From Polyangia bacterium (GTDB taxonomy: Bacteria > Myxococcota_A > Polyangia > Palsa-1104 > JAEUJZ01): a DNA stretch of 64,000 nt. The number at the start of each line of letters is the position of its first letter. Position 1 is the stretch's first letter. Below, one piece after another: positions 10,730 through 44,161 of this stretch. A model generated the notes under the pieces. The model was given only the letters and a program-made list of their open reading frames with translations, ran no database searches and was not told the origin of the DNA. Made by a program: the position numbers and the translations under genes. The stretch is from assembly GCA_044222245.1 (NCBI GenBank), contig JBGANQ010000054.1, positions 813 through 64,812 of the forward strand. The letters run 5' to 3'.

Positions 10730-10772
10730 CAGCCCCTTGACAGTGCGGCGCGGACCGGGCTTGCTTGCGTCT

Positions 10773-11384: not shown

Positions 11385-11470
11385 GCCGCCCGGCCGCGCG
11401 CGCCTGTCGCCGGGCAAGCCGACCGGTCGCCGGTGGCGGCGCGGGCGGCTAGCGATGCGGGGCTGAGCCG

Positions 11471-12553: not shown

Positions 12554-12710
12554 GCCGCGGCCCCTTGCCCGGGCTGCGCCGCCCGCGCGGGCCGCAGACC
12601 GCCAAGCCGGCCGTGGTCCGCGCGCCCCAGCTATTCGGCCCGCAGCGCGGTGATCGCGGCGGGGCGGCGCCTGCCTCAGGAGCGCGGATCGGACGACTGC
12701 AGGTGCGGGC

Positions 12711-13238: not shown

Positions 13239-13352
13239 CCTGACCCTCTTTAGCCAAGGTGGGCTTGGTGCAGAATCGACAGACCCTGAGCGCTGGCTCG
13301 GTGCCAGCATCGACCTGAATCATCCCCGGCGCAAGCTCGCGCGAGTCGCTTC

Positions 13353-28296: not shown

Positions 28297-30096
28297 ATGA
28301 CCAGCACCACCACCCGCCCGCTGCCAGAGGCCCAGCTCGGGCCGGCCGAGAAGCTGCTTGATCTGGTCCTCAGCTCCGGGGCCCACCTGTGGCACAACCG
28401 CCTGGGCCAGGAGGTCGCCGACAAGTGGCAGCCGCTGATCCTGCCGCGGGCGCGCCCCGGCCGCCTGCGGTCGATCCCGCGCGGGGCGCTGCCGCCGGGG
28501 CTGTTCGTCAAGGCGGCGGTGGCGCTGTACCGGCGGCTCATCGAGATCTACAAGCTCAACAGCGAGCTGTTCGCCCACTTTGCCAGCTACGCGATCCTGG
28601 AGACCGACTGGCGCGATCTGAAGGTCGCCTGCGCGGCGCTGCTCCTGGTGCAGCCGCGGGCCGGGCTGCCGGTGCGCGGCGAAGGCGGGGCGGTCGAGTT
28701 CCACGATGACGACTACCGCGCCCTGGGCGAGGCGATGCTGCTGTTCCACCAGCAGAAGTCGACCCGCGCGATGTCGCCCAAGGCGGTGCTGCGGGTCGCT
28801 GAGCTCCTGGAGACGGCGGAGATCGCGCAGCTCAACCGCCAGGCCGGCTTTGCCGGGGCGGCCTCGCGCAAGGCGCCGCTTGGCCGCTGGCCGCAGGCGG
28901 CGCGCGCCTGGCTGCGCCTGCGCGAGCGTAACCTGCCGATGCTGCAGGGGCTGGTCAAGGCGGGCTACAAGGAGACGATCAAGAAGCTGGCGCGCAAGTG
29001 CGGCTACAAGCCCGACAGCCAGGTCTTCTTCGAGGTGCTCGGCTGGAAGCAGAAGCAGACGGCGGCCGGCCACCGCGAGGTCGGCCTGAGCGGCCTTTTG
29101 CTGCGCAAGAGCGAGCGCTTCGACGGCTTCAGCGAGCAGGAGGTCTGCGAGTACATCGTCTCGGAGAAGCTGACCTACAAGGAGGTCGTCGGCCGGCTGC
29201 CGCGCGAGCTGGGCCTGACGCCGGCGATCATGGTCGCGCTTTTGCCTTCGCTGTCCGACACCGACCTGCGGCTGCTCACCCCGACCCTGGAGGGGCTCGG
29301 GCTGCTCGCCGACGCCGAGATCCGCCGCCGCTGGGAGCGCGCCATCGCCAGCGCCACTGACCAGCGCAGCCTCAACATCGCCAAGAACGTGCGCAGCCAG
29401 GTGCTGCGCGACAAGCTGGGCGAGGCGGCCGACAACGCCGCCCGCAAGGCGGTGGCGGCGGCGACCGCGGACGCCGACCTGCGGGTGATGTTCCTCATCG
29501 ACAAGTCGGGCTCGATGCAAGGGGCGATCGAGCAGTCTAAAGAGGCGCTGTCGCGCATCCTGGCCGGCTTCCCCGCCGCCAAGCTGCACATCGCCACCTT
29601 CGACACGATGGGCACCGTGCTTGTCCCCAAGGCGGCGAGCCGGGCGGCGGTGCAGCACATGCTGCAAAGCGTCCAGGCCTCGGGCGGGACGATCCACGGC
29701 GCGGCGCTGCGCGCCCTGCACCGCAGCGGCGTACGCATCCCCGACGACGCCCTGCTGGTGGTGATCGTCGTCGGCGATGAGGACGGCGAGGACCCCACCA
29801 AGTTTGCCAGCACGTTCGCCGAGCTCGGGTACAAGCCGGCGGCGCTGGGCCTCATCGTCAGCGTGCGCTCGCGGCGGGGCAGCACCGTCAAGACCGCGGC
29901 CGGCGTGCTGCAGGTGCCGTTCTCCGAGGTGCAGGTCGACCAGTTTGACGACCCCTATCAGGTCCCGCGGGTGCTGCGGGCGATGCTCGATGCCGCCACG
30001 CCCGCGGGCGCCCCGGCGGCCAAGCCGCGCACGAGCTGGGTCGAGAAGGTGATGGCGACGCCGCTATTGCGCAAGCCGGCCGCCGCCCGTCCGTAG
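28297..30096 (+). CDS. Ro60/TROVE-like helical domain plus C-terminal vWA (MIDAS) protein
   Basis: - vWA domain: VMFLIDKSGSM...ATFD...ASGGTIHG...LLVVIVVGDEDGE.
- N-terminal ~390 aa are helical. PLGRWPQAARAWL...LVKAGYKETIKKLARKCGYKPDSQVFFEVLGWK resembles the Ro60 block WGRALRKAIADWY...[21 protein letters not shown]...ITKGW from memory.
- The domain order and length match Rsr/Ro60. Confidence 0.6.
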   Translation: MTSTTTRPLPEAQLGPAEKLLDLVLSSGAHLWHNRLGQEVADKWQPLILPRARPGRLRSIPRGALPPGLFVKAAVALYRRLIEIYKLNSELFAHFASYAILETDWRDLKVACAALLLVQPRAGLPVRGEGGAVEFHDDDYRALGEAMLLFHQQKSTRAMSPKAVLRVAELLETAEIAQLNRQAGFAGAASRKAPLGRWPQAARAWLRLRERNLPMLQGLVKAGYKETIKKLARKCGYKPDSQVFFEVLGWKQKQTAAGHREVGLSGLLLRKSERFDGFSEQEVCEYIVSEKLTYKEVVGRLPRELGLTPAIMVALLPSLSDTDLRLLTPTLEGLGLLADAEIRRRWERAIASATDQRSLNIAKNVRSQVLRDKLGEAADNAARKAVAAATADADLRVMFLIDKSGSMQGAIEQSKEALSRILAGFPAAKLHIATFDTMGTVLVPKAASRAAVQHMLQSVQASGGTIHGAALRALHRSGVRIPDDALLVVIVVGDEDGEDPTKFASTFAELGYKPAALGLIVSVRSRRGSTVKTAAGVLQVPFSEVQVDQFDDPYQVPRVLRAMLDAATPAGAPAAKPRTSWVEKVMATPLLRKPAAARP

Positions 30097-30101
30097 CGCG
30101 C

Positions 30102-31217
30102 ATGGACTTCCGCCGCTTCCTCAACAGCCCCGGGGCCGGCTCGCCCACCACTGCCGACGGCGGCGCGGGGAGCGATGAGCAGGTGCTGCCGTACTTCGGC
30201 GGGCCCTATGTCGACTCGCGCGAGCGGCGGCTGCGGCTGCGCCTGGACGGCGGCGAAAGGCCGCGGCCGGGCTTTTACCGCTTCGCGGTGGGCGGCCGCA
30301 GCGCGACCCTGCGCGGGCCGGCCGAGGCTCCGCCGCTAGAGGACCTCAAGGCGGTGCGCGGCCACCTGCTCGGGGCGCGGCTGGTCCTGCCAAGCGGCGC
30401 CGTCGAGCCGCTGTTCTGCCTGCCCGAGGAGGTCCCGCCGCGCTTCGCCCCGATCCTCGCCCGGCGGTGGCCGACCGGCGAGCTGCTCTACGACCAGCTC
30501 GAGTTCGAAGGGGACGCCGAAGAGGCGGTGCGGCGGGCCTTGCAGGATGAGCAGCCGCTCGCCGCGCTCAAGGCGGTGCCGGCCTCGCTGCGCGCCGCGT
30601 TTGCCTATACCGTGGGCGAGCGCGCGGCGCAGCGCCTGGCGGTGCCGGTGAGTCCGCTGGAGCTATTGCCCGCCATTGCCGCCATCGCCGAGCGCGGCGT
30701 CCCCGCCGCTACCGAGGCGCTGCTGGCCCTTCAGGAGGAGCGCCGCGCCTACGCGCGCAGCCGCGAGCAAGAGCTGCTGGCCGCCACCGCCGCGGCGCAG
30801 GCGGCGGCGCGCGAGCAGCAGCGCGCGCAGGCGGCGGCGGCGCGCCTCCCCGAGCACGGCCGCGCCGCGCGCCCCGGCCGCGTGCCGCCCGACCGCGGTC
30901 GCCCCGCCCCGCTGGCCGCCGAAGAGCGCGCCGAGCACGCCCTGCACGCCGCCGGGGCCACGCTCCTTGATACGCGGTCGCTCGGCCGCGATCAGCTGGA
31001 GGTGATCTATCGGTTCCACGGCCAGCGCTTCATCTCGATCGTCCAGGCCTCGACGCTGCAGGTGATCGACGCCGGGGTCTGCCTGGCCGGCGCCGACAGC
31101 CTGGTCACGCTGGAGAGCCTGCCCTCGGTGCTCAAGGAGGCGATCGAGACCCGGCGCCTGGTCATCACCCGCCGCGCACCCGGCGACGCTGACTACTATG
31201 AGGATTTCGATGACTGA
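30102..31217 (+). CDS. Hypothetical 371-aa protein (possible E2-like C-terminal domain)
   Basis: It starts 5 nt after the upstream stop. It has an N-domain, an Ala/Gln/Arg coiled-coil linker, and a C-domain reading LEVIYRFHGQRFISIVQASTLQVIDAGVCLAGADSLVTLESLPSVLKEAI. Confidence 0.7.
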   Translation: MDFRRFLNSPGAGSPTTADGGAGSDEQVLPYFGGPYVDSRERRLRLRLDGGERPRPGFYRFAVGGRSATLRGPAEAPPLEDLKAVRGHLLGARLVLPSGAVEPLFCLPEEVPPRFAPILARRWPTGELLYDQLEFEGDAEEAVRRALQDEQPLAALKAVPASLRAAFAYTVGERAAQRLAVPVSPLELLPAIAAIAERGVPAATEALLALQEERRAYARSREQELLAATAAAQAAAREQQRAQAAAARLPEHGRAARPGRVPPDRGRPAPLAAEERAEHALHAAGATLLDTRSLGRDQLEVIYRFHGQRFISIVQASTLQVIDAGVCLAGADSLVTLESLPSVLKEAIETRRLVITRRAPGDADYYEDFDD

Positions 31218-31704
31218 GAGAGCCGAGCGACCCGGCGGCGGTGCGCTGCGCGAGGTGTGCCTGCTTATCGGCCGCGGCGACGTCATCCTGTGGTCGGATG
31301 CGTCGGCAAGTCCGGTGTGGCTGCCCGACTCGCGCGCCCGCTGGGAGGCAATCTGGCACCACCGCGCCGAGCTGACCGAGATCGTCCACAGTCACCCGGT
31401 GGGCCCGCTCGCCTTCTCGGCCGAGGATGAGACGACGATGGCGGCGCTAGGCGCGGCGCTCGGCGCCGGCCTGGGGTTTGCGGTGGTCGCCCCCGGCGGC
31501 ATGATCCGGCGCCGCTACCCGCCGCGCGCTGGCGATGGGCTCGCGGCGCCGGCGCTTGACACCCAGCTTTTGCCGGCGGCCGAGCCGTGGTGGGCGGCCC
31601 TTTTGCGCCTGGCCTCGGGCATGCGCCCGGAGCCCGAGCCGCCAGACGCGGACCTTGAAGCTGCCTCAGAGCTGCCTGCTTCGCCCCCAAAGACGGAGGA
31701 CTAG
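31210..31704 (+). CDS. JAMM/MPN+ (JAB) metallopeptidase
   Basis: An upstream Glu (ALREV) plus HSHPVGPLAFSAED fit E...HxHx7Sx2D exactly. The ATG at 31210 overlaps the upstream stop by 8 nt. An alternative ATG is at 31198. Confidence 0.8.
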   Translation: MTERAERPGGGALREVCLLIGRGDVILWSDASASPVWLPDSRARWEAIWHHRAELTEIVHSHPVGPLAFSAEDETTMAALGAALGAGLGFAVVAPGGMIRRRYPPRAGDGLAAPALDTQLLPAAEPWWAALLRLASGMRPEPEPPDADLEAASELPASPPKTED

Positions 31705-31845
31705 ATGGCGACGTTGAACATCACCTACAAGTGCTGGCCGGCCCAGACTGAAGGAAGATCACGCCCTTGCGCCGCGGTGCTGCCCGCGCTCCCGCCCGCG
31801 CCGCGGCGCCGCCGACGGGCCCGGGCCGCGCGGCGGTGGATATAG
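31705..31845 (+). pseudogene. 5' stub of the Ubl-like gene, cut by IE-1
   Basis: The ATG immediately follows the JAB stop (TAGATG). MATLNITYK uses normal codons. After 31730 the reading turns into rare-codon and Arg-rich junk, with a stop at 31843-45. Not in the ORF track because it is under 60 aa. Confidence 0.6.
31714..31730 (+). repeat. Direct repeat (att core) of IE-1, left copy
   Basis: TTGaaCATCACCTACAA here versus TTGtcCATCACCTACAA at 34632-34648, which is 15/17 identity including 12 contiguous bases. Both copies are in the same reading frame (L-x-I-T-Y-K/N). Confidence 0.6.
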
Positions 31846-31891
31846 GGAGGATACGACGGGCGTGTTACGATAGCGGCGGGGGGCTCGGGTC

Positions 31892-33001
31892 ATGGGCGAC
31901 CTGGTACGACGGGGGACGAGCTTTTATGTTCGCTATCGCGACGTCGATGGCGTGCGGCGCATGCGCGCCTCGCACCAGCCGACTCGCGAGCTGGCGCGGC
32001 GCTTCCTGGTCGAGATCGAGGCGCGGATCGCCCGCGGCAAGATCGGCATCCCCGAGCCGGCGGCGCCCGCGCCTACGGTGGCCGAGCTGGTCGGCCGCTT
32101 CCTGGCCGAGTATCGCCAGCCGCGGATCAAGGATCTGCAGAAGTATCGCCGGTTTGCCACCAGCAACCTGCGACGGGCGCTGCCGCTGTTGGGCGCGCTG
32201 CGAGCCGACGCCGTAACCGCCGCCGACCTCGATCGCCTGCGCGACCAGCTGGCGCGCCGCTGCGCCCCCGGCTCGGCCGGGCTGACCTTCACGTTCCTCA
32301 AGACCGCCTTCGCGTGGGCGGCGCGCGGCGGCCTGATCGCCCGCAACCCGCTTTACCGGGTGCCGCTGCCGCCGCCGCGCGAGCCCGACATCGAGTACCT
32401 GAGCGCCGACGAGGTGACGGCGCTGCTCGCCGCCGCCGATCGGCGGGCAGCAGCCGGTGGGGTGGCCGAGCGCCTGCTGCGCGGGGCGGTGTACCTGGCG
32501 CTGCACGCCGGCCTGCGCAAGGGCGAGCTGTTCGGGCTGCGCTGGCGCGACCTCGACCTGGAGTCGCGGCGCCTGACGGTGCGTAGCAGCTTCGCCACCA
32601 CCCCCAAGGGCGGCCGGGCCCGTCACCTGCGCATCCCCGCCGTCGTCGTCCCGGTGCTGCTAGAGCTCTGCGGAAAGTGTCCGCAGACGCCGCAGGGGCT
32701 GGTGTTTCCCCGCCGCCACCGCGGCCAGTGGGGGATGTGCGCGACGACCGGCGCGATGCTCGGGCTGCCGGCGCTGCTCGCCGCCGCCGGCTGCCGGCCC
32801 GTGGGCCGCTGCTGGCACGCGCTGCGCCACACCTTCGCGTCGCACTACATCATGCAGGGCGGGAACATCCTGGCGCTGCAGAAGATCCTCGGGCACAGCG
32901 ATCTCCGCATGACCACCATCTACGCCCACCTCGCCCCGGACTTTCTCGGGGCGGAGATGGATCGCCTCAGGTTTCCGCCGCCGGACAAGCTGCCGATCTA
33001 G
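31892..33001 (+). CDS. Tyrosine recombinase/integrase (IE-1)
   Basis: ALHAGLRKGELFGLRW (catalytic R), WHALRHTFASH (HxxR) and LGHSDLRMTTIYAHL (Y). It is a clear paralogue of the integrase at 42040-43146; both begin MGDLVR. Confidence 0.9.
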   Translation: MGDLVRRGTSFYVRYRDVDGVRRMRASHQPTRELARRFLVEIEARIARGKIGIPEPAAPAPTVAELVGRFLAEYRQPRIKDLQKYRRFATSNLRRALPLLGALRADAVTAADLDRLRDQLARRCAPGSAGLTFTFLKTAFAWAARGGLIARNPLYRVPLPPPREPDIEYLSADEVTALLAAADRRAAAGGVAERLLRGAVYLALHAGLRKGELFGLRWRDLDLESRRLTVRSSFATTPKGGRARHLRIPAVVVPVLLELCGKCPQTPQGLVFPRRHRGQWGMCATTGAMLGLPALLAAAGCRPVGRCWHALRHTFASHYIMQGGNILALQKILGHSDLRMTTIYAHLAPDFLGAEMDRLRFPPPDKLPI

Positions 33002-33019
33002 CCGCCGGCGCGCCCGCCG

Positions 33020-33784
33020 CTAGAACCGCCCGCCGACCAGGACGCCGCTGCCGCCGCTCAGGGTGAGGGGGCTTATCGTCAGGCTGTTCTTGGCGTAGAT
33101 CGCCACCCGGGTGTGGGTGGCGGCGCCGACGATCATGAGCGCCAGCCCGCTGGCCTGGACCAGGCCGTCGATCGCGAGCATGGTGCCGCCGAGCTGGCTG
33201 CCGCTGCCCGACAGGTAGCCGAGCTCGAGCCAGGGCCCGATGAGCGGGATGTACAGCGGCCACAGCGCCGAGGCGGTGCCAAACGACGGCCCCGAAGCGG
33301 TGATCGAGTTGCGGACCGGCATGCCGTTTTTGTAGTACAGCGAGTCGGCATAGCTGGCGGTGAGCAGCGCCGTGAGCGACCACGACAGGCCAAGCACGGC
33401 GGCGCCGGCGATGATAAGCCGAGTGCGCGGCCGGGTGACGTAGCGCACCGCGGCGGGCCGGGCCGGGATGAGCGTCGGCTGCGTCCCGAGGTAGGGCTGC
33501 GCCGGATAGTAGGGCTGCGCCGGATAGTAGGGCTGCGCCGGATAGTAGGGCTGACCCGGGTAGCTCGGGGCCGGGTAGCTCGGGGTCGGGTAGTAGGGCT
33601 GGGCCGACTCGGGCGGCGGTGGGTATGCCGGCCCTGCTGGCGGCTGCGCCGGCTCGGTCGGCGGCGACGGCGCGGACTGGGTTACGTACGTGCCGGAGTC
33701 CTGCTGCGCCTCGGCGGAGCTGCAGAGGCTCACTCCCAATCCGACCAGCGTCAGGCTGACTACGATGGCTTTTCGCGCTTGCAT
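33020..33784 (-). CDS. Secreted/membrane protein with a Pro/Tyr-rich repeat region
   Basis: Signal peptide, (PYYPAQ)x3-4 encoded by an 18-bp tandem repeat (~33492-33550), and hydrophobic C-terminal segments. Confidence 0.65.
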   Translation of the reverse strand: MQARKAIVVSLTLVGLGVSLCSSAEAQQDSGTYVTQSAPSPPTEPAQPPAGPAYPPPPESAQPYYPTPSYPAPSYPGQPYYPAQPYYPAQPYYPAQPYLGTQPTLIPARPAAVRYVTRPRTRLIIAGAAVLGLSWSLTALLTASYADSLYYKNGMPVRNSITASGPSFGTASALWPLYIPLIGPWLELGYLSGSGSQLGGTMLAIDGLVQASGLALMIVGAATHTRVAIYAKNSLTISPLTLSGGSGVLVGGRF

Positions 33785-33957
33785 GGGGGGTCCTTGGTGG
33801 AAGTTTAAGGCGGCGCGCTGCGCAGTTTCAGTTTATTTATCGGCCGGCGCGCGATCCAGTGCTTGCCTTTTGTCCGCAAAGTGCAGATTGCTCCGGTGGC
33901 GGCGCGAGCAAAAACTTATAACCGCTGACAACTCAATCAAGTTATGAGCACTGCACC

Positions 33958-34479
33958 ATGACCTTTACCCTCCATGATACCGCCTACCGCACCGATACCC
34001 GGGAAGCCAAGGAGGCCATGTATGCCGACCTGCGCACGCAGCTGCAGGGCCTGCTGCACGGCGAGAGCGACTGGATCGCCAACACCGCCAACTTCAGCTC
34101 CTTGGTCTTTCACAGCGTCCCCGGGCTGAACTGGGCTGGCTTTTATTTCTTGAAGACCGCGGACGAGCTGGTGCTCGGCCCCTTCCAGGGCAAGCCGGCC
34201 TGCATCCGCATCCAGAAGGGCCGCGGCGTCTGCGGCTCGACCGTGGTAAAGCGAGCGCCGATCGTCGTGCCCGACGTGCACGCCTTCCCCGGTCACATCG
34301 CCTGCGACTCCAGCTCGCGCTCGGAGCTGGTGGTGCCCATATTCGCCCGCGGCGAGGTCGTCGGGGTGTTCGATCTGGACAGCCCGCTGCTGGGGCGGTT
34401 TGATGACACCGACGCGCAGGGGGTCCAGTCGCTCGTGCAGCTGCTGGAGCAGACGCTGACGGCGCCGACCAGCCCGTAG
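33958..34479 (+). CDS. msrC: GAF-domain free methionine-(R)-sulfoxide reductase
   Basis: NWAGFYF...LVLGPFQGKPACIRIQKGRGVCG...VPDVHAFPGHIACDSSSRSELVVPI matches the YebR/fRMsr family pattern. Confidence 0.8.
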   Translation: MTFTLHDTAYRTDTREAKEAMYADLRTQLQGLLHGESDWIANTANFSSLVFHSVPGLNWAGFYFLKTADELVLGPFQGKPACIRIQKGRGVCGSTVVKRAPIVVPDVHAFPGHIACDSSSRSELVVPIFARGEVVGVFDLDSPLLGRFDDTDAQGVQSLVQLLEQTLTAPTSP

Positions 34480-34518
34480 TCCGATGACCGTGAGGCTGCA
34501 TCCAGCAGCTTGGTCTAG

Positions 34519-34585
34519 CGATACTAGGAACGATATTAAGAACGATACTAAGAACGATACTAAGAGGGATACAAGATGGATACGG
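34519..34585. repeat. Five and a half tandem 12-bp AT-rich units (CGATACTAAGAA type)
   Basis: cgatactaggaa / cgatattaagaa / cgatactaagaa / cgatactaagag / ggatacaagatg / gatacgg. They lie 47-113 bp inside the right repeat of IE-1. Confidence 0.85.
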
Positions 34586-34631
34586 CGCGGCCGAGACTCG
34601 CGGCGCAGCGACGCGCTGCGCCGGCCAGCGC

Positions 34632-34648
34632 TTGTCCATCACCTACAA
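34632..34648 (+). repeat. Direct repeat (att core) of IE-1, right copy
   Basis: TTGtcCATCACCTACAA; see 31714-31730. Confidence 0.6.
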
Positions 34649-34913
34649 CGGCACCTCGGCCGACTACCCGCAGCCTATAGATGGCGAGCTCTCGGATCGC
34701 GAGCTGCGTCGCATCGGGGAGGAGCTTGTGCGCTCCGGCGACCTGCCCGGCCTGTGGCTCAAGGATCTGCCGCACCGGGTCTTTGAGCAGTTCGTGGTCG
34801 ATCGCATCCACTCGCCCAAGGGCGGCCTGCGGATCTACCTGCGGCCCAAGGTCCCGTTCGGGAACGGACCCGCGCGAGGGTCGTGGCGAGCGCCGCGGCC
34901 CCAGGGGCGCTAG
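34632..34913 (+). CDS. Small Ubl-like (beta-grasp candidate) protein, 3' part of the gene split by IE-1
   Basis: A TTG-initiated ORF. (L)SITYNGTSADYPQP...GGLRIYLRPKVPFG is followed by a 16-aa Arg/Pro tail. The stop is 3 nt before the E1-like ATG. Confidence 0.6.
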   Translation: MSITYNGTSADYPQPIDGELSDRELRRIGEELVRSGDLPGLWLKDLPHRVFEQFVVDRIHSPKGGLRIYLRPKVPFGNGPARGSWRAPRPQGR

Positions 34914-34916
34914 GCG

Positions 34917-35489
34917 ATGCGGCTCCTGTTCTGCGGGGTGGGGGCGCTCGGCTCGACCGCGGTCGTGTTGTGCCGCAGCCTGGGCGTCGAGCTGGCGCTT
35001 TGCGACTGCGACCGCGTGGAGACCAAGAACCTGCACGCCCAGGCGTTCGTCAAGCAGTCGCTGGGCAAGAACAAGGCCGAGGCGCTGAAGCTGCAGCTCG
35101 GGAACTTCTATGGCCTGAAGTGCGAGGCGTTCGGCGTGCGGCTGACCGCGACCAATGTGGACGCGCTGGCCCAGGGGGCGGACCTGCTCATCGACTGCTT
35201 TGACAACCAGGCGAGCCGCCAGCTGCTGGCCGACTACGCCCGCCGCACCGGCAAGCCGCTAGTGCACGCGGCGATGGCGGCCGATGGGCAGTTTGGCCTG
35301 GTGCGGTGGGACGAGCGCTTTGTCGCCGATGCCGAGGACCACGCCGGTCAGGCCACCTGCGAGGGAGGGGCGCACCTGCCGTTTATCGGGCTGCTCGCCG
35401 CGACCCTGGCGCGCGTCATTCAGGACTTTGTCCTGCACGGCCAGCGGCACGACTGCATGGTCGCGCTGCGCTCGGTGACCAGCCAGTAG
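34917..35489 (+). CDS. Minimal E1/ThiF/MoeB-like adenylation-domain protein (190 aa)
   Basis: LLFCGVGALGSTAVVLCRSLGVE-LALCDCDRVETKNL (Rossmann G-x-G-x-x-G plus D-x-D-x-V-E-x-x-N-L), GKNKAEAL, and LLIDCFDN (Mg-binding Asp). The usual NLxRQ Arg is Ala here (NLHAQ). Confidence 0.75.
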   Translation: MRLLFCGVGALGSTAVVLCRSLGVELALCDCDRVETKNLHAQAFVKQSLGKNKAEALKLQLGNFYGLKCEAFGVRLTATNVDALAQGADLLIDCFDNQASRQLLADYARRTGKPLVHAAMAADGQFGLVRWDERFVADAEDHAGQATCEGGAHLPFIGLLAATLARVIQDFVLHGQRHDCMVALRSVTSQ

Positions 35490-35549: not shown

Positions 35550-36410
35550 TCAGCCGGTGGGCGGCCGGGGCGGCGGCAGGCCGTCGCGCAGCGGCGGCAG
35601 GCGGCGCCAGGGGACGCGGCGCTGCGGGACGACAGCGGCGTCGCGCAGCGGCGGCAGGGCGTCCCAGCCGCCGGGGCGGGCGACCGACGGGCTCTGCGGC
35701 GGCTCACCCGGGCGCAGCGGCGGCAGCGGTCCCACGCCGCGCGCAGGCCCCTGGGGCAGCTCGGCCGCGGCGGCGCGCAGCGGCGGCAGGACCTGCCACG
35801 ACACCGCGGTCAGCGCCGCCTCCGACACCGGGCGCAGCGGCGGCAGCTTCTGCCACGGCGTAAGCGCGCTGGGCGGTAGCAGCGGCGGCAGCGCTGGACC
35901 GCTGGCGGGGGCGGGCGTCGCGGCCAGCGGCGGCGCCGGCGGCGCGACCAGGCGCAGCGGCGGCAGCGACTCCCACTTGACCGGGACCCGCGGCGGCGGC
36001 AGCGGTGGCCCCGGGCGCAGCGGCGGCAGCGCCGTCCACGCGACCAGGGCGCGCGGCGGCGGCGGCGGGCTCAGCTCGTCACGCAGCGGCGGCAGCAGCG
36101 CCCACTCCGGGTGCGAGCGGGGCTGCGCCCGCACCGTGCCGAGCCAGGACAGCCCGCGCAGCCCGGGCTGGCGCGAGCGGGCCATCTCCGGCAGCAGGTC
36201 GAGCACCCCCTGCGCCGGCGGCTGCGCCGACTCCATGCGAAACAGGAAATCATCCAGCGTCTGCACGGAGAAGTGCCAGCGATCCTGCTCGGGGGCCGGC
36301 AGCTCGCCGCGCGCCAGGGTGCGCAGGACCACGGTCTTGTCGTCATGCGGCAGCCCCGCCAGGTTGCGACGAAACTGCGGGCTGTAGCGGAACCACTGCT
36401 CGACGTTGGA
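35550..36410 (-). pseudogene. 3' fragment of the gene split by IE-2 (W-x-LPPLR repeat C-terminal domain)
   Basis: The frame is open from the att core: SNVEQW-FRYSPQFRRNLAGLPHDDKTVVLRTLARGELP...ESAQ. About 9 LPPLR-type repeats follow. There is no ATG upstream, and the track ORF starts at an internal GTG (36332). Confidence 0.75.
36392..36410. repeat. Direct repeat (att core) of IE-2, left copy
   Basis: ACCACTGCTCGACgTTGGA here versus ACCACTGCTCGACaTTGGA at 43294-43312 (18/19). Both encode S-N-V-E-Q-W on the minus strand. Confidence 0.8.
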
Positions 36411-36536: not shown

Positions 36537-38723
36537 CTACGGCCTGGGCTTGGGCCGGGTGAGCATGGACACCGTCTTGACCAGCTCGCTCACGTCCACC
36601 GGCTTGGCGATGTGCGCCTGGAAGCCCGCCTGCAGCGCCTCCTCGGTATCGGCGGTGCGCGCGAAGGCGGTGAGGGCGATCGCCGGGATGAGCTTCTGCC
36701 CCGGGCTCTTGGCCTCGCGAGCGCGCAGCGCCCGCACAAGCTGGTAGCCGTCGCCCTCGGGCATCGCGATGTCGCTGATGAGCACATCGGGCGTAAGCTG
36801 GCGCAGGATCTCCAGCGCCGACGCCCCCGAGCTCGCCGTGATGACCTCGGCCCCGTGCTGGGTCAGGGTGGGCCCGAGGAAGGCCAGCATGTCCGGCTGA
36901 TCATCGACAAGCAGGATCTGCACCCCGCGCAGCGTCGCCTTGAGCTCCGAGGGGACCGGCGGTCGCTCTTTGGGCGGCGCGGAGCTGCTGGGTGGCGCGC
37001 TGGCCCGCTGGTCGCGCGGCAGGTGCACGACGAAGGTGCTGCCGAGCCCCTCGCCGGGGCTCTGGGCCGACACCGAGCCGCCGTGCATCTGCACCAGGTG
37101 GTGCACGATCGCCAGCCCGAGGCCCAGGCCGCCGTGCCGCCGCGAGGTGGTGCCGTCGGCCTGCCGGAAGCGGTCAAAGACATAGGGCAGAAAGTCCGGC
37201 GCGATGCCCTGGCCGGTGTCGGAGATGGTGAGGACTACATGGTGCTGATCGCCGCCCACCCAGACCTCGATGGCGCCGCCGCGGGGGGTGAACTTGGTGG
37301 CGTTGGTAAGCAGGTTCCAGATGACCTGCTGCAGGCGCCCGGCGTCGCCCAGGACCATCTCGGTGCCGCCGAGGAAGGTGGCGCTCAGCTGCAGCCCCTT
37401 GGCCTCGGCGGCCGGGCGCACCGAGTCGATGGCGACGTTTACCACCGGGACCAGGTTGAGCGGCCGCAGCTCGAGCGTGATCTTGCCCGAGACGATGCGC
37501 GAGATGTCGAGGATCTCGTCGATCAGCTTGGCCTGCACGAGCGAGTTGCGCTCGATGACCTCCACTGCGCGCGGGATGATCTCGGGCTTGGGCGAGTCGC
37601 GTAGGAGCCGCGCCCAGCCGAGCACGGCGCTCAGCGGGGTGCGCAGCTCGTGCGATAGGGTGGCCAGGAAGATGTCCTTGGCCTGGTTGGCCGCCTGCGC
37701 CGCGTCGCGGGCCTGGCGCTCGCGCACTAGCAGCTCGGCCTGGGCGCGCTCGGCGCGCTTGCGGTCCATGATGTCGGTCAGGCTGACCACGCAGCCGATG
37801 ATGCGGTTGTCGGCGGCGCGAATCGGCCCGGCGCTGAGCAGCATGTGCAGGGGGCTGCGGCCGCCGTGCAGCTGGAAGATCACCTCGCGCCCGGTGTACC
37901 TTTTGCCCTGCAGGAAATCCTCTACCGTCAGGCGGCTGCCGGTGGCCGGCTCGCGGTCGGCCAGCGTCGACTCGGCCGGCGCCAGATACAGCTGGAACCG
38001 CTCGTCAAACGCCGAGAGCAGCAGGTTGCCCTCGCACAGCGACTGCGCGCACTGGCTGGCGCGGGTGATAAGTCCCGCCTCATTGCAGACAAAGATCGCC
38101 TCGGCTGCCTGATCGAGGATCGAGATCGCCAGGCGCTGCGACTCAAGGACCGCCTGACTGTGCTTCTGCTCGCGCAGATCGGTGACGATCAAGCACGCGC
38201 AGTCCAGGCCATCGACGTTGAGCGGGCTGAAAGACAGAAAGACCGGCAGCACCATGCCTTCGACGACCAGCTGCACCTCGCCCTTGCTGCCCACGCGCAT
38301 CCCGTGCTCGAGCAGCGCCGCGCACAGGGCGCGATCGGCGGGCTGGACAAAGGCTCGCATCTCCAGCCCGATCACCTGCGCCGCCGGCAGACCCACAAGG
38401 CGGGTGAACGCCGGGTTGGCGTACAGGATTCGTCCCTCCGCGCTCAGCGTCACCGCCCCTTCGCTCATCGCCTCGACCAGGACCGCGTAGGGGTGCTCGG
38501 CGCCACTCAGCATGTGGATGCGCGGACCGTGGCGGCTGCTCACCGCCAGAGCATCGATCTCGCCCTCGCGGATCGCCCGCAACAGATCTTCGGCGTCCTG
38601 GAGCCGCGCCCGCATGGAGAGCACTTCCTGCGCCGACAGGTCGATGGACTCAGCGCTCTCGGCAGGCTCGTGCCCAGCCGAGAGCGCCGCTAGCTCGGCT
38701 TCTGATTTACTGGCGGGAGTCAT
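36537..38723 (-). CDS. PAS-PAS hybrid sensor histidine kinase with a C-terminal receiver
   Basis: H-box LATLSHELRTPLSAVLGW, an N/G-box HATPase (NLLTNATKFT...ISDTGQGI...GGLGLGLAIV), and a REC domain (ILLVDDQPDM...VLISDIAMPEGDGY...ALTA). Confidence 0.9.
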   Translation of the reverse strand: MTPASKSEAELAALSAGHEPAESAESIDLSAQEVLSMRARLQDAEDLLRAIREGEIDALAVSSRHGPRIHMLSGAEHPYAVLVEAMSEGAVTLSAEGRILYANPAFTRLVGLPAAQVIGLEMRAFVQPADRALCAALLEHGMRVGSKGEVQLVVEGMVLPVFLSFSPLNVDGLDCACLIVTDLREQKHSQAVLESQRLAISILDQAAEAIFVCNEAGLITRASQCAQSLCEGNLLLSAFDERFQLYLAPAESTLADREPATGSRLTVEDFLQGKRYTGREVIFQLHGGRSPLHMLLSAGPIRAADNRIIGCVVSLTDIMDRKRAERAQAELLVRERQARDAAQAANQAKDIFLATLSHELRTPLSAVLGWARLLRDSPKPEIIPRAVEVIERNSLVQAKLIDEILDISRIVSGKITLELRPLNLVPVVNVAIDSVRPAAEAKGLQLSATFLGGTEMVLGDAGRLQQVIWNLLTNATKFTPRGGAIEVWVGGDQHHVVLTISDTGQGIAPDFLPYVFDRFRQADGTTSRRHGGLGLGLAIVHHLVQMHGGSVSAQSPGEGLGSTFVVHLPRDQRASAPPSSSAPPKERPPVPSELKATLRGVQILLVDDQPDMLAFLGPTLTQHGAEVITASSGASALEILRQLTPDVLISDIAMPEGDGYQLVRALRAREAKSPGQKLIPAIALTAFARTADTEEALQAGFQAHIAKPVDVSELVKTVSMLTRPKPRP

Positions 38724-38772: not shown

Positions 38773-39255
38773 TTATTTCACCAGATGAACCCCGCAGACA
38801 TCGAGCCCGACCAGCACCCGCTCGGTATTGGACAGATCGCCGATGATCTTCTTGATGGGCGAGGGCAGCTTGCGCACCAGGGTGGGAATCGCCACGATCT
38901 GGTCGGTCGCCGCCAGCTGCGGCTTTTGAATCAGATCGATGATCTCAAGCTCGATGGTGTACTTGGTCGCCAGGTGCTCATCGCAGAGCTTCTTCAGGTT
39001 GGCCAGCGCGGCCAGGCTGCGCGGAGTCTGGCCGGCGATGTACAGGCGCAGGGTGACCGCCTCCTTGGGCGCCGCCGCGGCCCCCGCGGACGGCGCCGCG
39101 GGCCCGTCGTCCACCGGCGGCCGGGGAGGGCTGGACTTGGTCGCCGCGGTGCGGGCGCTGCTCGGCCCCTTGACGGCCGCCATCTTATCCGACTTCTTGG
39201 CTGCAGTCTTATCTGCAGCCTTGTCGTTCTTCTTGTCGGTAGTCAAAGATTTCAT
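38773..39255 (-). CDS. kaiB: KaiB with a ~65-aa Lys/Ala/Pro-rich N-terminal extension
   Basis: The core [27 protein letters not shown]...[47 protein letters not shown] is very close to cyanobacterial KaiB. Its ATG overlaps the kaiC stop (ATGA). Confidence 0.9.
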
Positions 39256-41027
39256 GATGCCCGCCTATTCTTCTTGTTCGGGCCTACAGGCGGGGCCTTG
39301 GGCTCATCCCCGATGCTCTCCCGCAGCCGGGCCATTTGCTGGCGCATGGTCTCCTGGGTCTTCTGCGTCTGCTCCGCCTGGGCGAGGAGCTGGGCGGCGC
39401 GGGCCGCCTCGGCCTCATACTCGGCGCGCAGCAGGTCGATCTGATTTTCCAGCGCCTTGCGCCGCTGGCCGAGCGCCGCCTGCTGCCGCTCGATCTCGTA
39501 CTGCTGGGCAAGCGCCTGCGCCCGCTCCTTGGCCTCCTGGGCGATGCGGGCCGAGCCCATGAGCACTCCCTCGCTGCCCAGGTAGGCGTCGATCAGCTCG
39601 ACCCCGCGCTTGGTGATGCGGAACTCGCGGATCTGGTGACTGTGGTCCATGCCGCGGGATTTCAAGATGTACAGGCCGCGATTGCGCTCGCCGTTGGACT
39701 CCAGGTTGCGCAGCAAGATCCAGGTGTCCATGAGCGATGAGGTGCCGACGTCAGTCGAGGCCTCGGCCTGATCGCCGGAGGTGAGGCTGAGAAACAGACT
39801 GGTGATAAGCTCCCCTTTGAGGAAATCGAGCAGCCGGGTGAGGGCCGCCTTGGTCTCGACCATGCTCCCCACTTCCGAGAGGTTGGTGATCGGATCGACG
39901 ATGACGGCGGTGGGCTTGTAGTCGGTGATCTGCTTGTGGATGAGCGCCAGGTGCATCTCCAGCCCGTACATCGTCGGGCGGCTGGCGACGATGCGCAGCA
40001 GATCCTTATCAATCCACTTCTGCAGATCGAGCCCGATCGAGCGCATGTTGCGCACGATCTGCGCCGGCGACTCCTCAAACGCAAAGTAGATGCAGCGCTC
40101 GCCGCGCTGGCAGCAGGCGTCGGCGAACAGCGCCGCCAGGCTGCTCTTGCCGCTGCCGGCGGTGCCCGAGATCAGCACGCTGCTGCCGCGGTAGAAGCCG
40201 CCCTGTCCGAGCATCGAGTCGAGCCGCGCCACGCCGGTCGCGATCCGCTCGCTCGAGGCCCGGTGGTTCAGCGACATCGAGGTAATGGGAAGCACCGAGA
40301 AGCCGGTGTCGCTGATGAGGAACGGATACTCATTGGTGCCGTGGCGGGTGCCGCGGTACTTGACGACTCGCAGGCGCCGCGTCGAGATCTGATCGACGAT
40401 CCGGTGATCGAGCAGAATCACGCAGTCCGAGACATACTCTTCCAGGCCGTGCCGGGTCAGGCTGCCGGCGCCGCGCTCGGCGGTGATGAGCGCCGTGAGG
40501 TGGCGGCTCTTGAGCCAGCCGAACAGCCGGCGCAGCTCGGCGCGGATGGTCGCCTCTGCGGTCAGGCTGGCAAACAGGACCTCCAGGGTATCCAGGACGA
40601 CGCGCTTGGCGCCGATGCTCGACACCGCCGCGTCCAGGCGGATGAACAGTCCCTCCAGATCGTAGTCGCCGGCCTCCTCAAACTCGTTCGGATCCAGGTG
40701 GATGTATTCGACAACGAGGCGCTTCTGCGCAATCAGCGTATCAAGGTCAAAGCCGAGCGAGGCGGCGTTGGCCTTGAGATCATCGGCGGTCTCTTCAAAG
40801 GCGATGAACACGCCAGGCTCGCCGTATTCCATCGCTCCGCGCACCAGAAACTCCATTGAAAACAGAGTCTTGCCGCAGCCGGCGGAGCCGCACACCAGCG
40901 TCGGACGGCCGGCCGGCAGTCCGCCGCCCGTGATCTCATCGAGGCCAGTTACACCCGTTGCCGCCTTGGGGAGAGGAGGGAGCGAATGCGGTCCTTTAGG
41001 CCGCGCCGAAATAGCGGTTTTTCTCAC
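39252..41027 (-). CDS. kaiC: KaiC (double RecA-like ATPase) with a ~70-aa C-terminal coiled-coil extension
   Basis: [14 protein letters not shown], Walker A in both halves (GSAGCGKT and GTAGSGKS), the phospho-site region [12 protein letters not shown], and the tail [56 protein letters not shown]. Confidence 0.9.
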
Positions 41028-41177
41028 AAATTCTCCTCAAGGTCGTCAGGCCATCCAGCGACGCTGGAGTGTAGGGCAACGTCAGTCGAACACACCTATC
41101 GAACCATAATAGCAACATCTACGGCATAAACAACCTCCGTGAGACGTAAAAAGCAGCCTCGCAGGGCTTTCTGTTCC

Positions 41178-41276
41178 GGTCTGGCCGGTCTGGCCGGTCT
41201 GGCTGGTCTGGCCGGTCTGGCTGGTCTGGCCGGTCTGGCCGGTCTGGCCGGTCTGGCCGGTCTGGCCGGTCTGGCT
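41178..41276. repeat. Eleven tandem 9-bp units (GGTCTGGCC, three GGTCTGGCT variants)
   Basis: Counted directly. The array lies 151-249 bp upstream of the kaiC start codon. Confidence 0.9.
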
Positions 41277-41533
41277 CAACTTGGTTCCTCGGCTCGTAGT
41301 GGCCCTAGGGTAAATACTAGCTCAACTCGCAAAGCTGCTCCCTAAAAGAGGCTCCCGCGGCGCCCGGCATTCCCTGCGGGCGGACTCCCAAGCATCTTGA
41401 GGGCTTGAGTGCTTGGGATGTTCAGAGCTTCAAGCTCTGGGGTCTTTGGGAGCGGCCAGGCGACTCGTTTTTTTCTCGACTGCCCGCCGGCGGCCACACA
41501 AAGCTGCGCGGGAAGATTTGTCTTTCTAGATAG

Positions 41534-41560
41534 TGGAAACCACTTGTATAATCGTCGCGC
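41534..41560 (+). promoter_or_regulatory. Putative promoter/operator of the excisionase-like gene (near-leaderless)
   Basis: TATAAT is at 41547-52 with TG immediately upstream. The ATG at 41561 is only 8 nt downstream. The palindrome GTGGAAACCAC (41534-44) sits in the spacer. Confidence 0.35.
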
Positions 41561-41983
41561 ATGGCTCTAAAAAAAGTCATCTCGGACGACACCAGAGTGA
41601 TCGATCTGACTGTCGGCGAGCTCGTGGCGCTGCTTGCGGCGCGGCTGCCTGCCGAGCCTCCCCCGGGCGCCGCGCCGGCCGACTGTCCCGAGGCGCTGCT
41701 CGACACCTGGCAGACCGCGCGCATGCTCGGCATTCACCCGCGCCGCGAGCTTGGGCCCGAGCCACCCGCGGGCACGGCCGAGCATCGACAGTGGCGGCAG
41801 CAGGAGCAGGCGCTGCGCAACGAGGTGGCCCGCCGGCTACAGAGCTGGATGGAGCGGCATCCCCAGGTCGCGCAGCTGGCGATCCGTATGAAGGGCGAGC
41901 GGCGCCGCTACTTCCGGCGGCAGGACATCGCTGCCTACCTCGACCGCGCGATCGCCACCCCGGCCCGCCGCCGCTTCTGCTGA
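41561..41983 (+). CDS. Excisionase/MerR-type HTH-like protein (tentative)
   Basis: LLDTWQTARMLGIHP...RRYFRRQDIAAYLDR resembles excisionase-family DNA-binding domains. It lies near the integrase inside IE-2. Confidence 0.5.
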   Translation: MALKKVISDDTRVIDLTVGELVALLAARLPAEPPPGAAPADCPEALLDTWQTARMLGIHPRRELGPEPPAGTAEHRQWRQQEQALRNEVARRLQSWMERHPQVAQLAIRMKGERRRYFRRQDIAAYLDRAIATPARRRFC

Positions 41984-42039: not shown

Positions 42040-43146
42040 TCAGAGCGACAGCCGGTCCATCTCTTCACCGAGAAAATCCGGTGCCAGGTGGGCATACAGC
42101 AGCGTCATCTTGATGTCGGCGTGGCCGAGGATCTTCTGCAAGGTCAGGATGTTCCCTCCCGCCATGACGAAGTGGGAAGCGAAGGTGTGACGCAGCGCGT
42201 GCCACGGGCGGCGCAGCGTGGAGATTCCGAGCTCCGCCAGCAGCTCGGGAAGGCCGAGCATGTCCACCTTGCGGCCAAGGCGCGGGCCGCCGCGACCGGC
42301 CACCGGGAATACCAGCCCCTCCGGGGTCTTTGGGCACAGCTCGCGCCAGGTCTGCAGCAAGGGACACAGCTGGGAAGGAATCCGCAGGTGGCGGCAGTGT
42401 CCGGACTTGGGAGTGGTCCGGTAGGAGCGCGCTACATCGAGGCGCCGGGTCTGCAGATCCAGATCCTGCCAGCGCAGGCCGAGCAGCTCGCCCTTGCGCA
42501 GTCCGGTGCGCACGGTGGTCGCGATCGCGCCGAAGAGCAGCCAGTCGGCGTGCCGCTGCCGGGTGCGGGCGCGCTCCTCGGCGGCGGCGAGCAGGCAGCG
42601 CAGGTCGTCGCGGCCAAGAAACTCCAGCAGGCTCTCGCGCGCCGGGCGCTCGACGCCCAGGCAGGGGTTGGGGCAGCTGATCAGGCCCTCCCGGCGCGCC
42701 CACGAGTACGCGGTGGACAGCGGGCGCAGCGTCGACATCACCGTGTTGGGCTTATAGGTCTCGGCCAGCCGGTCGCGCAGCCGGCGAACGTCGCTGGCCG
42801 CCACGGCGCTGCACAGCCGCTCGCCGAGCTGCGGCAGGATGCGGCGCAGCGCCGACCGCTGCTCGCTGCGATACCGGCCGAGATCCTTGATGCGCGGCCG
42901 CGAGTAGCCGCTCACATAGAGCTCGCACAGCTGGGCGACCGACAGCTCGCGCGGCGGCGGCGCGGCGGCGGGCAGGCCGCACTGGCCGCGCGCCACCCGC
43001 GCCTCGATGTCGACCAGCAAGCGCCGCGCCAGCGCCTTGGTCGGCTGGTGGCTGGCGCGCTGCTTGCGCCGGCCATCGCTGTCGATGTAGCGGACGTACC
43101 AGCCGACAAACTTGCCGTTTTTCTCCTTGCGGACAAGGTCACCCAT
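42040..43146 (-). CDS. Tyrosine recombinase/integrase (IE-2)
   Basis: MGDLVRKEKNGKFVGWYVRY..., VRTGLRKGELLGLRW, WHALRHTFASH and LGHADIKMTLLYAHL. The ATG at 43144-46 is chosen inside the 466-aa track ORF. Paralogue of 31892-33001. Confidence 0.9.
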   Translation of the reverse strand: MGDLVRKEKNGKFVGWYVRYIDSDGRRKQRASHQPTKALARRLLVDIEARVARGQCGLPAAAPPPRELSVAQLCELYVSGYSRPRIKDLGRYRSEQRSALRRILPQLGERLCSAVAASDVRRLRDRLAETYKPNTVMSTLRPLSTAYSWARREGLISCPNPCLGVERPARESLLEFLGRDDLRCLLAAAEERARTRQRHADWLLFGAIATTVRTGLRKGELLGLRWQDLDLQTRRLDVARSYRTTPKSGHCRHLRIPSQLCPLLQTWRELCPKTPEGLVFPVAGRGGPRLGRKVDMLGLPELLAELGISTLRRPWHALRHTFASHFVMAGGNILTLQKILGHADIKMTLLYAHLAPDFLGEEMDRLSL

Positions 43147-43293: not shown

Positions 43294-43312
43294 ACCACTG
43301 CTCGACATTGGA
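43294..43312. repeat. Direct repeat (att core) of IE-2, right copy
   Basis: ACCACTGCTCGACaTTGGA; see 36392-36410. Confidence 0.8.
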
Positions 43313-44161
43313 CAGATACAGCGTGCGCACCTGGTGGCCGGTGCGGCGGGCGGCGGCGCCAATGGCGATGAGCGTGGTCTCGCCGTGCAGGTCGCCCACC
43401 CGGGCAAAGACCCGGCGGGCCTGCATGAGGGCGCGCACATGCTTGTACAGCTCGGGGTCGGCGACCCAGGTGACCGGGCGGCCGTGCTGGCGCACCTCGC
43501 GCTCGCCGCGCAGGTGGCTGGCGAGCAGACCGCGGTAGCGCAGGAACGTCGGCCACAGGCGCTTGGCCTCGGCCTCCGGCCAGCGCGCCGCCAGCGCCGC
43601 CTTGATCTGGGCGTCCTTGCCCGCGGCGAGCAGCGCGATGAGGTCGGCCGGCGTCTCGGCCTGCGGGATCAGCGCCGCGTAGATCCGGTGCCACTGCACG
43701 ACATCGCCGTCGATGTCGATGAGCCACAGGAGCTCGGCGCCGGCCACCGCGGCCAGGGTGTAGTTCTGGTCGGCGCCGACCCCGACGTAGCCGCCGCCGA
43801 GGTGGCGCAGCGCCGAGAACAGGACATCGTGCCGGCGCTCGTTCGAGCGCAGGAAGTGGATGCGTACGTTGTAGGGCTTCTCCTCGGGCAGCGACTCGAA
43901 GCCCTGCACCACCTCCTGGCCGAGCGGAGGGAGCGACGCCTGCGCTTCGGCGCGGCGGTCGGCGAGCAGCAGCAAGGCGAGCAGCACCCCGAGCGCCGCC
44001 AGCCGCCCCTTGCCGCGGTGCCTGCCGAGCCCAGGGCAGGCAGGGACCCGCGGCGCCCCCCGGCCCGCGCAGCGCGGCGCGGCTTCCCAGCGGGCCCCGG
44101 GTACACCCGCCGGCGAGCGGCTTCCCGCTGTCCCCGGCGCAGGCTGTGTGGGGAGACCCAT
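43294..44161 (-). pseudogene. 5' fragment of the gene split by IE-2
   Basis: The sequence reads well up to ...HQVRTLYLSNVEQW. Downstream of the repeat the track ORF (to 43139) becomes CGRADPCRWIPTDLPSPAGP..., which is element sequence read in frame. Confidence 0.75.

Follow-up and report, generated by a model that had tools for sequence, protein, structure and literature searches.

We analyzed a 64,000-nt stretch of a Polyangia bacterium genome (GCA_044222245.1, contig JBGANQ010000054.1, positions 813 to 64,812), referred to here as the window, in which the gene for a small ubiquitin-like protein (Ubl) is split by an integrative element, IE-1. Immediately upstream lies a gene for a 168-aa JAB/MPN peptidase (31198..31704, plus strand; Pfam Prok-JAB, 1.7e-6). 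Its TAG stop codon ends at 31704, and the native Ubl start codon abuts it at 31705 (sequence GGAGGACTAGATGG). The initial annotation of this locus had described an ATG directly after the JAB stop that opens MATLNITYK before the frame collapses to an Arg run, and a (TTG)SITYNGTSADY open reading frame (ORF) ahead of the E1-like gene; both are present. The bases at 31705-31730 read ATG GCG ACG TTG AAC ATC ACC TAC AA and comprise the ATG, codons 2-8 and two bases of codon 9 of the orphaned Ubl 5’ end (31705..31730, plus strand; MATLNITY-). The 46-aa ORF that they open (31705-31845) is junk: it opens MATLNITYK and, past 31730, consists of 38 Arg/Pro/Ala-rich codons up to a stop at 31845. The Ubl 3’ part, or Ubl’ (34632..34913, plus strand), begins TTG TCC ATC ACC TAC AAC GGC... 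at 34632, is translated as (M)SITYNGTSADY... and stops at 34913, three bases short of the ThiF/E1-like gene. Host DNA resumes at 34649, and the element supplies the in-frame TTG TCC (34632-34637) that gives (M)SITYNG.... Ubl’ is 96% identical to both interrupted and uninterrupted alleles of the same clade. Joining 31705-31730 to 34649-34913 gives 291 nt, or 96 codons and a stop.

The two halves of the gene meet the element in a shared sequence. Positions 31714-31730 (TTGAACATCACCTACAA) and 34632-34648 (TTGTCCATCACCTACAA) match at 15/17 bases, 12 of them contiguous and in the same frame, as the initial annotation had it. The exact 12-mer CATCACCTACAA is found at 31719..31730 (the attL copy) and 34637..34648 (the attR copy), both on the plus strand. 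These are its only 2 copies in the window, where 0.03 would be expected at no more than one mismatch. The attR copy was located by repeat search and by comparison with contigs in which the site is empty, and in those contigs the attL copy overlaps both flanks.

Such empty contigs were found in nature. L088 and L087 (loci and contigs are given L numbers here, and proteins P numbers) join window position 31730 straight to 34649, giving MATLNITYNGTSADY..., and the element is therefore 2,918 bp long (31731..34648, plus strand). Limits of 31719-34636 are equivalent, as the crossover point cannot be placed within the 12-nt core. L088 is 100% identical to window positions 31505-31730 joined to 34637-34879, with both matches sharing the core. 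L087, a 15.3-kb contig, has the same precise empty site and is 99.5% identical over 6.5 kb of the upstream cassette, and L174 is a third empty contig of the window’s lineage. The orphaned 5’ end in the window has the same sequence as the uninterrupted alleles of L087 and L088. The element is absent from these three contigs and present in L089, L090 and L002-L007, at 99.3-100% identity to the window. A second host lineage (~93% identity in the Ubl 3’ part) is likewise polymorphic, with both occupied and empty sites and its own variant of the element: the empty L175, in which JAB, Ubl and ThiF are contiguous, has 100% identity over 247 nt to L011 and 99.3% identity to L176, both of which are occupied. 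Altogether, the occupied arrangement recurs in more than 10 independent contigs from JGI, ENA, Logan and NCBI, and the precise empty join is seen in four independent contigs from four assemblies and two lineages. It is therefore unlikely that the empty contigs are assembly collapses.

Protein sequences record the same two states of the gene. P0126 and P0136, which open with MATLNITYNGTSADYPQPIDG..., agree with the window product in every residue through GNGPARG. Together with the empty contigs, this native N-terminus bears out the proposal that the joined halves are the native 96-codon gene. A search with the joined 96-aa protein returned 679 homologues of an ~81-aa family, and those with a source name come from Myxococcota. 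The N-terminus MA[VIT]LNITYNG or a close variant is present in 117/120 of the best representatives (e.g., P0007 begins MATLNITYNGTSADYP), and the orphaned 5’ end fits this consensus. M1, A2 and L4 are at least 90% conserved and N5 is invariant. The only clear exceptions are the three closest matches (P0001-P0003), which diverge exactly before or within ...ITYNG. The 90%-identity clusters of these three contain both forms of the gene: P0126/P0136 (MATLNITYNG...) are paired with P0124/P0002 (L/MSITYNG...), with a shared tail, P0122 (MAILNITYNG...) with P0001/P0121, and P0131 with P0134. In the window’s clade, 13 distinct occupied alleles stand against 11 distinct empty alleles. The search for uninterrupted orthologues that had been suggested as a check thus succeeded, as JAB, Ubl and ThiF are also contiguous in L008 and in the distant loci L171-L173.

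Between the repeats lie an integrase gene starting 162 nt past the left repeat and two cargo genes, in agreement with the initial annotation. The tyrosine integrase (369 aa; 31892..33001, plus strand; Pfam Phage_integrase PF00589, 7e-24) starts with an ATG at 31892 and reads inward from the left end. Its translation shows the catalytic motifs GLRKGE, TPKGG, HALRH, GHS and IYAH (R-K-H-x-x-R-H/W-Y signature), and against NCBIfam it gave XerC/XerD-like matches that were sub-threshold only. The first cargo gene encodes a 254-aa signal/membrane protein (33020..33784, minus strand), which is present in all copies of the element and has no family match in Pfam or NCBIfam. Within it, 18-nt tandem repeats at 33477-33607 encode Pro/Tyr repeats of the YYPAQP type. 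The second encodes a 173-aa GAF protein (33958..34479, plus strand; Pfam GAF, 9e-12) homologous to free methionine-(R)-sulfoxide reductases (fRMsr). Among PDB sequences it matches 1vhm YebR (6e-46), 3mmh Met-R-sulfoxide reductase (3e-40) and 1f5m YKL069W (9e-36). No further credible ORFs were found in the element beyond these three genes, and no transfer, phage, conjugation or mobilisation genes were recognised in it.

The ends of the element have the anatomy of a recombination site. Joining the right end to the left end gives a deduced attP, GCCGGCCAGCGCTTGT-CCATCACCT-ACAAGTGCTGGCCGGC, in which two 16-nt arms that are 15/16 complementary surround the 9-nt spacer CCATCACCT. An inverted-repeat search places the right-end core-type half-site (GCCGGCCAGCGCTTGT) at 34620..34635 and its inverted left-end partner (ACAAGTGCTGGCCGGC) at 31727..31742, both given on the plus strand. 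The attB sequence (..CGTTGA-ACATCACCT-ACAACG..) is also palindromic in this register, though less strongly. The attP/attB identity CATCACCTACAA spans 8/9 of the spacer bases, and strand exchange by the tyrosine recombinase would be expected within the part of the spacer that it covers. Further in, the GATA(C/T) repeats that had been noted at both inner ends are present at 31838 and 31849 on the left, with six at 34519-34578 on the right. The left arm has two GGATA[T/C] repeats 11 nt apart (31838..31854, plus strand), and the right arm has six [CG]GATA[CT] repeats in the same orientation at 11-12-nt spacing (34519..34583, plus strand). The left pair is kept at the same relative position in L001, L092 and L094, and GGATAC pairs or triplets occupy the right-arm position in L001, L009, L011, L092, L094 and L176. 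Since these repeats persist in all variants (L001, L009, L011, L092, L094 and L176) amid non-coding DNA that is 40-70% identical, they are likely arm-type binding sites for the integrase.

The initial annotation had also asked whether the element recurs elsewhere as a unit; it does recur, and at the Ubl site only. Scans of GTDB genomes and JGI metagenomes found integrases at least 81% identical only in the context JAB-[integrase-membrane-GAF]-Ubl’. Seven loci had informative flanks (L001, L011, L089, L090 and L092-L094), and L091 was too short to show its flanks. The scan of genome contigs with the integrase gave two close relatives only, both from one metagenome-assembled genome. Relatives of 45-65% identity lie in other contexts, and the integrase clade is thus restricted to the Ubl target.

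Two observations concern the wider integrase family. In L092, the sequence to the left of the attL core (1-1036) is a lower-GC segment with an XRE-type helix-turn-helix (HTH) gene in place of JAB, and it abuts the same core (ctagaacATCACCTACAAg); a distinct element has probably been stacked there. In L010, L095, L096, L098 and L099, integrase relatives of 59-65% identity adjoin the 5’ end of another conserved divergent gene (MTAFAAPAPEKVTFWRNQL...). In L010, L095, L096 and L099 this gene lies ~150-250 nt upstream of where the integrase gene starts. The arms have GGACC repeats, or GGATCA in L098. A GT[GT]TACGAT motif ~30 nt before the integrase start is common to L010, L095, L096, L098 and L099. 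Judged from these sites, the integrase family may generally target gene ends.

To describe selection at the locus, substitution rates were compared between the window and L001. Synonymous divergence (dS) is 0.22-0.45 for host genes and 0.46-0.53 for element genes. The ratio of nonsynonymous to synonymous divergence (dN/dS) is 0.24 for the integrase, 0.20 for the fRMsr/GAF gene and 0.54 for the membrane protein gene, the fastest-evolving gene of the element. Among host genes, it is 0.03 for the Ubl 3’ part and 0.09 for ThiF. The integrase, the fRMsr gene and the split gene are therefore under purifying selection. Pairwise distances give host and element the same topology, (window,(L001,L011)), which would be compatible with long residence and co-divergence of the two, weakly so with three lineages.

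These data show that the element is real, recently active and of a fairly ordinary gene-splitting kind. We have high confidence that IE-1 is a small site-specific integrative element whose tyrosine integrase recombined it into codons 5-9 of the Ubl gene, and that the Ubl is probably off or weakened until excision. From the anatomy of the sites, the integrase would bind the two 16-nt inverted core sites around the 9-nt spacer and, in lambda-type fashion, the same-orientation GGATA[C/T] repeats of both arms. It would then catalyse attP x attB integration, and attL x attR excision would restore the gene scarlessly. While inserted, the element would take from the Ubl the native ATG, the GGAGGA ribosome-binding site and the coupling to JAB, and would cost the protein the first three residues of its predicted beta-1 strand. 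GGAGGA precedes the native ATG, and no Shine-Dalgarno motif precedes the TTG at 34632. A TTG-started product has invariant N5 replaced and lacks three residues of strand beta-1. The most likely consequence of insertion would thus be that the Ubl, and probably the whole cassette that contains it, is off or weakened until the element leaves. Since no transfer or excisionase genes were recognised, IE-1 is probably passed on mainly by vertical descent and lost through excision.

Exact direct repeats of at least 12 nt are not rare here: there are 6 pairs between 31500 and 35100 (72% G+C) vs 1.5 expected under a first-order Markov model. The 12-nt repeat alone is thus unconvincing, and the case for an element rests on the empty-site contigs. 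Several other points weigh against this reading. Neither the ORFs of the element nor searches with Pfam and NCBIfam revealed an excisionase or other recombination directionality factor, and there was no HTH match, which leaves the direction of the reaction unexplained. A search of IMG/VR for the attP junction (28-mer pattern) gave no match, and no excised circle or attP junction was seen. Empty and occupied alleles were found in sister samples of the same projects only and not within one sample; because they come from different samples, the polymorphism may reflect integration, excision or homologous replacement between strains. The exact 96-aa joined product, with the empty 5’ site and the window’s tail, is absent from a collection of 15 billion proteins; the empty allele found for the window’s lineage has another C-terminal tail. 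Finally, the loss of Ubl function is something we infer: every variant preserves an in-frame TTG, and the fRMsr gene could allow readthrough.

This last point bears on the likeliest of the rival readings, one that we nevertheless consider unlikely: a benign replacement of the 5’ end in the style of the dusA islands, in which the TTG and a substitute beta-1 (SITY.. for LNITY..), transcribed from the fRMsr gene, leave Ubl and E1 functional. All variants retain an in-frame TTG and x-ITY at attR (TTG TCC, TTG TAC or TTG AAC), and dusA islands do provide such a 5’ end, replacement beta-strand included (PMC4482086). The TTG sits inside the inverted core site (CTTGT...ACAAG), however, so its conservation needs no coding explanation, as recombinase binding suffices. 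The fRMsr gene is oriented toward Ubl’; a scan of 31500-35000 found no promoter, and its only terminator-like sites are at other positions than between the two genes. Strong purifying selection on Ubl’ and ThiF in the occupied lineages also fits a functional product. Against this, the TTG has no Shine-Dalgarno-like sequence where the native ATG has GGAGGA, translational coupling to JAB is lost, and three beta-1 residues are missing along with M1, A2 and L4 (≥90% conserved) and invariant N5.

It is improbable, in our estimation, that IE-1 is a domesticated conditional switch, an element kept by the host whose excision, triggered by a condition or cell type, turns on the vWA-JAB-Ubl-E1 cassette. 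The integrase is under purifying selection (dN/dS 0.24) though the element has no recognisable transfer genes, and conservation of the split gene and of the E1 gene is strong where the site is occupied (0.03 and 0.09); selection on Ubl’ may, however, operate during the empty state. The element and host trees are congruent for three lineages, suggesting long residence, but three-taxon congruence has a one-in-three chance expectation. The TTG without a preceding ribosome-binding site would suit a gene held off, the source-named homologues come from Myxococcota, and an element of the same family splits another gene 1.75 kb away, as related elements do in cyanobacteria (PMC4874684) and spore-formers (PMC5595907). 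Both elements nevertheless bear self-contained cargo (fRMsr in one, KaiBC and a kinase in the other) like ordinary genomic islets, and no regulatory link to any signal was found. In some samples, moreover, the empty allele is the dominant form assembled (L087, on a 15-kb contig), so that loss of the element is heritable and not limited to terminal cells. The heritability of the empty alleles argues that IE-1 behaves as an ordinary mobile element.

A broader form of the same idea is that IE-1 and the 6.9-kb element represent a lineage-specific family of tyrosine-recombinase elements that reside in coding genes and serve Myxococcota-like hosts as excision switches; IE-1 would then hold the vWA-JAB-Ubl-E1 cassette silent until triggered. 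This gains some support from the second same-family element in a nearby gene; we regard it as quite doubtful. That there is no mobile element at all (i.e., a chance repeat, a conserved motif of two paralogues or an assembly chimera) can practically be dismissed: repeats of this length do occur here in excess of expectation, but the left copy has fewer than 9 host codons before non-coding-like sequence, the occupied arrangement recurs in more than 10 independent contigs, and four independent contigs hold precise joins. In particular, two independent paralogues sharing an N-terminal motif were rejected, because the left copy comprises ~8.7 host codons only and the precise joining is found in nature.

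The integrative element that we favour can be compared with several known systems. In dusA-specific islands, the end of the element can supply a working 5’ end with a replacement beta-strand (Farrugia et al. 2015, PMC4482086). Like IE-1, these are tyrosine-integrase elements that target a single conserved segment in the 5’ end of a protein-coding gene, have semi-conserved flanking direct repeats and leave the displaced native 5’ end at the far junction. The end of the element brings a new start and first beta-strand to the gene in dusA islands and may do so in IE-1, and in both the integrase is constant while the cargo varies. IE-1 differs in its target, a Ubl gene in Myxococcota-like bacteria, in its far smaller size (2.9 kb, three genes) and in its identity segment of 12 nt vs 19-28 bp for dusA/dusB islands (PMC4482086). 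Excision of a circle was demonstrated by PCR for dusA islands (PMC4482086), whereas for IE-1 it is predicted from the sites.

A recombinase-bearing element also interrupts a coding gene in skin/sigK, SPbeta/spsM and gin/gerE (PMC5595907) and in the nifD/fdxN/hupL elements (PMC4874684). As in those systems, IE-1 interrupts a coding gene and its precise excision product restores the reading frame, through recombination in a short repeat that precisely rebuilds the gene (9 bp in gin, 12 nt in IE-1). Such elements can be as small as 1-3 kb, as IE-1 is, and related ones may occupy several genes of one genome, here IE-1 and the 6.9-kb DUF7790 element. In contrast, there is no evidence of developmental or conditional control for IE-1, whose empty state is inherited in natural populations, and gin, skin and SPbeta use serine recombinases with a directionality factor, whereas IE-1 has a tyrosine integrase and no such factor was found.

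With lambda-type elements, IE-1 shares an integrase gene adjoining one end, inverted core sites with a short spacer, two-sided arm repeats and a weaker attB palindrome. It differs in having a coding target rather than a tRNA or intergenic one, and no phage, conjugation or mobilisation genes or Xis were recognised in it. By its site organisation, IE-1 would work like a lambda-type integrative element reduced to an integrase and cargo. Tycheposons integrate mainly at sites of the tRNA type, and characteristic modules for replication or packaging are part of them; IE-1 has no such modules. In general description the two are alike: both are small chromosomal elements, carry a tyrosine recombinase with a few niche-type cargo genes and vary in presence among close strains (bioRxiv 10.1101/2020.12.28.424599).

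The Ubl gene belongs to a five-gene cassette, vWA-unknown-JAB-Ubl-E1, which is normally contiguous and is whole in the distant loci L171-L173. Its first gene encodes a 599-aa vWA-domain protein (28297..30096, plus strand; Pfam VWA_2, 2e-9) and is found in the same gene order in L087, L089 and the distant homologue loci L171-L173. The second encodes a 371-aa protein (30102..31217, plus strand), which has no match in Pfam, NCBIfam or PADLOC and holds the same position in L087, L093 and L171. The last gene, after JAB and Ubl, encodes a minimal E1-like ThiF adenylyltransferase of 190 aa (34917..35489, plus strand; Pfam ThiF, 1e-23). In PADLOC, ThiF matches only the E1 part of E1-E2 models, the vWA, 371-aa, JAB and Ubl proteins have no match, and no E2-like or fused E1-E2 protein was found in the cassette. 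As there is no E2 and PADLOC recognises the E1 domain only, assignment of the cassette to the Bil, CBASS (Cap2/Cap3) or Bub-type Ubl systems was rejected. A literature search found related Ubl and vWA systems and no description of a vWA-unknown-JAB-Ubl-E1 cassette.

The Ubl itself has a strongly conserved ending, in which R74-P75-(K76)-V77-P78-F79-G80 is invariant, K76 nearly so, and 0-16 variable residues follow. An AlphaFold2 model of P0004, the closest uninterrupted orthologue from the search, has a pLDDT (predicted local distance difference test score) of 86 and a strand-strand-helix-strand-strand order, with strand beta-1 at residues 2-8 (pLDDT 95). When this model was compared with the PDB by Foldseek, nothing matched significantly (best E 0.06); PB1, RBD and ubiquitin-like structures appeared as weak hits at TM (template modeling) scores of 0.33-0.43, and the beta-grasp fold is therefore putative. 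With its conserved C-terminal glycine and its flanking ThiF and Prok-JAB genes, the small protein would fit a ubiquitin-like or sulfur-carrier role, with the JAB peptidase trimming its tail. The C-terminal tails of JAB (31560-31704) and Ubl (34860-34913, past PFG) diverge far more between lineages than the rest of the cassette. The Ubl tail is unusually long in the window’s clade, with 13-16 aa vs 0-5 aa in most of the family.

IE-1 thus offers a nucleotide-exact minimal recombination system, with an integrase, deduced attP, attB, attL and attR, and alleles with and without the element that occur in nature. The source lineage is uncultured and very GC-rich; the system can be tested directly in vitro and may be of use as a genetic tool. 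For annotation, a small gene with a TTG start in such genomes is a remnant and not a native gene. The locus also draws attention to a widespread cassette, with 679 Ubl homologues, that is absent from PADLOC, and to the Ubl gene as a repeated insertion target that receives the 5’ element, a 4.35-kb insert in its 3’ tail and, in L092, an element stacked at the core. If excision were regulated, IE-1 would be a new example of programmed gene reconstitution, and if the switch-family reading were true, reconstitution of the skin/nifD type would be known from a third group of bacteria and would involve a ubiquitin-like system.

A second element lies 1.75 kb from IE-1; it is 6,902 bp long and has its cores at 36393-36404 and 43295-43306. 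Its integrase (43146..42040, minus strand) has 53% aa identity to that of IE-1. The element is flanked by the 12-nt repeat GTCGAGCAGTGG (minus-strand reading) and has GGATCC/GATC repeats in both arms. A candidate repeat pair at 41696/43298 was rejected, as the true partner of the core at 43295-43306 is 36393-36404. This element splits a gene of ~560 aa with DUF7790 and PPLRP repeats into an N-part (44161..43295) and a C-part (36410..35553, both minus strand), which were placed by tblastn with the uninterrupted homologues P0141-P0143; another homologue, P0140, is truncated at the same codon. By Pfam, its cargo consists of KaiC (39252-41027), KaiB (38773-39255) and a PAS-HisKA-HATPase-REC hybrid histidine kinase (36537-38723), all on the minus strand, and a clock-type KaiBC module thus rides on a small integrase element. 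Within this element, an unusually AT-rich non-coding stretch (41030-41560) contains ~12 tandem copies of the 9-nt unit GGTCTGGCC at 41158-41303. Downstream of these repeats, a 140-aa ORF (41561-41983) is excisionase-like by eye and has no Pfam match.

The tail of the Ubl gene holds a further insertion site, the 16-nt sequence ACGGACCCGCGCGAGG (34864..34879, plus strand), which is empty in the window. In sister strains 99-100% identical to the window, it carries a 4.35-kb insertion flanked by the 16-nt direct repeat and situated between Ubl and ThiF. In L087, L090 and L002-L007, the match to the window breaks off at 34879 and picks up again at 34864, 4.35 kb further on; the insertion is also present in L089, and in L087 it occupies positions 10077-14458. 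Its products are a Lys-rich protein, a hemerythrin, a Ser/Thr kinase and an asparaginase, with no recombinase among them. Three of the four combinations of 5’ element and tail insertion were seen: the window (+,-), L087 (-,+) and L090 (+,+). L011, of the different lineage, ends at the window equivalent of 34878, one base before the position at which the identity of the sister strains stops (34879).

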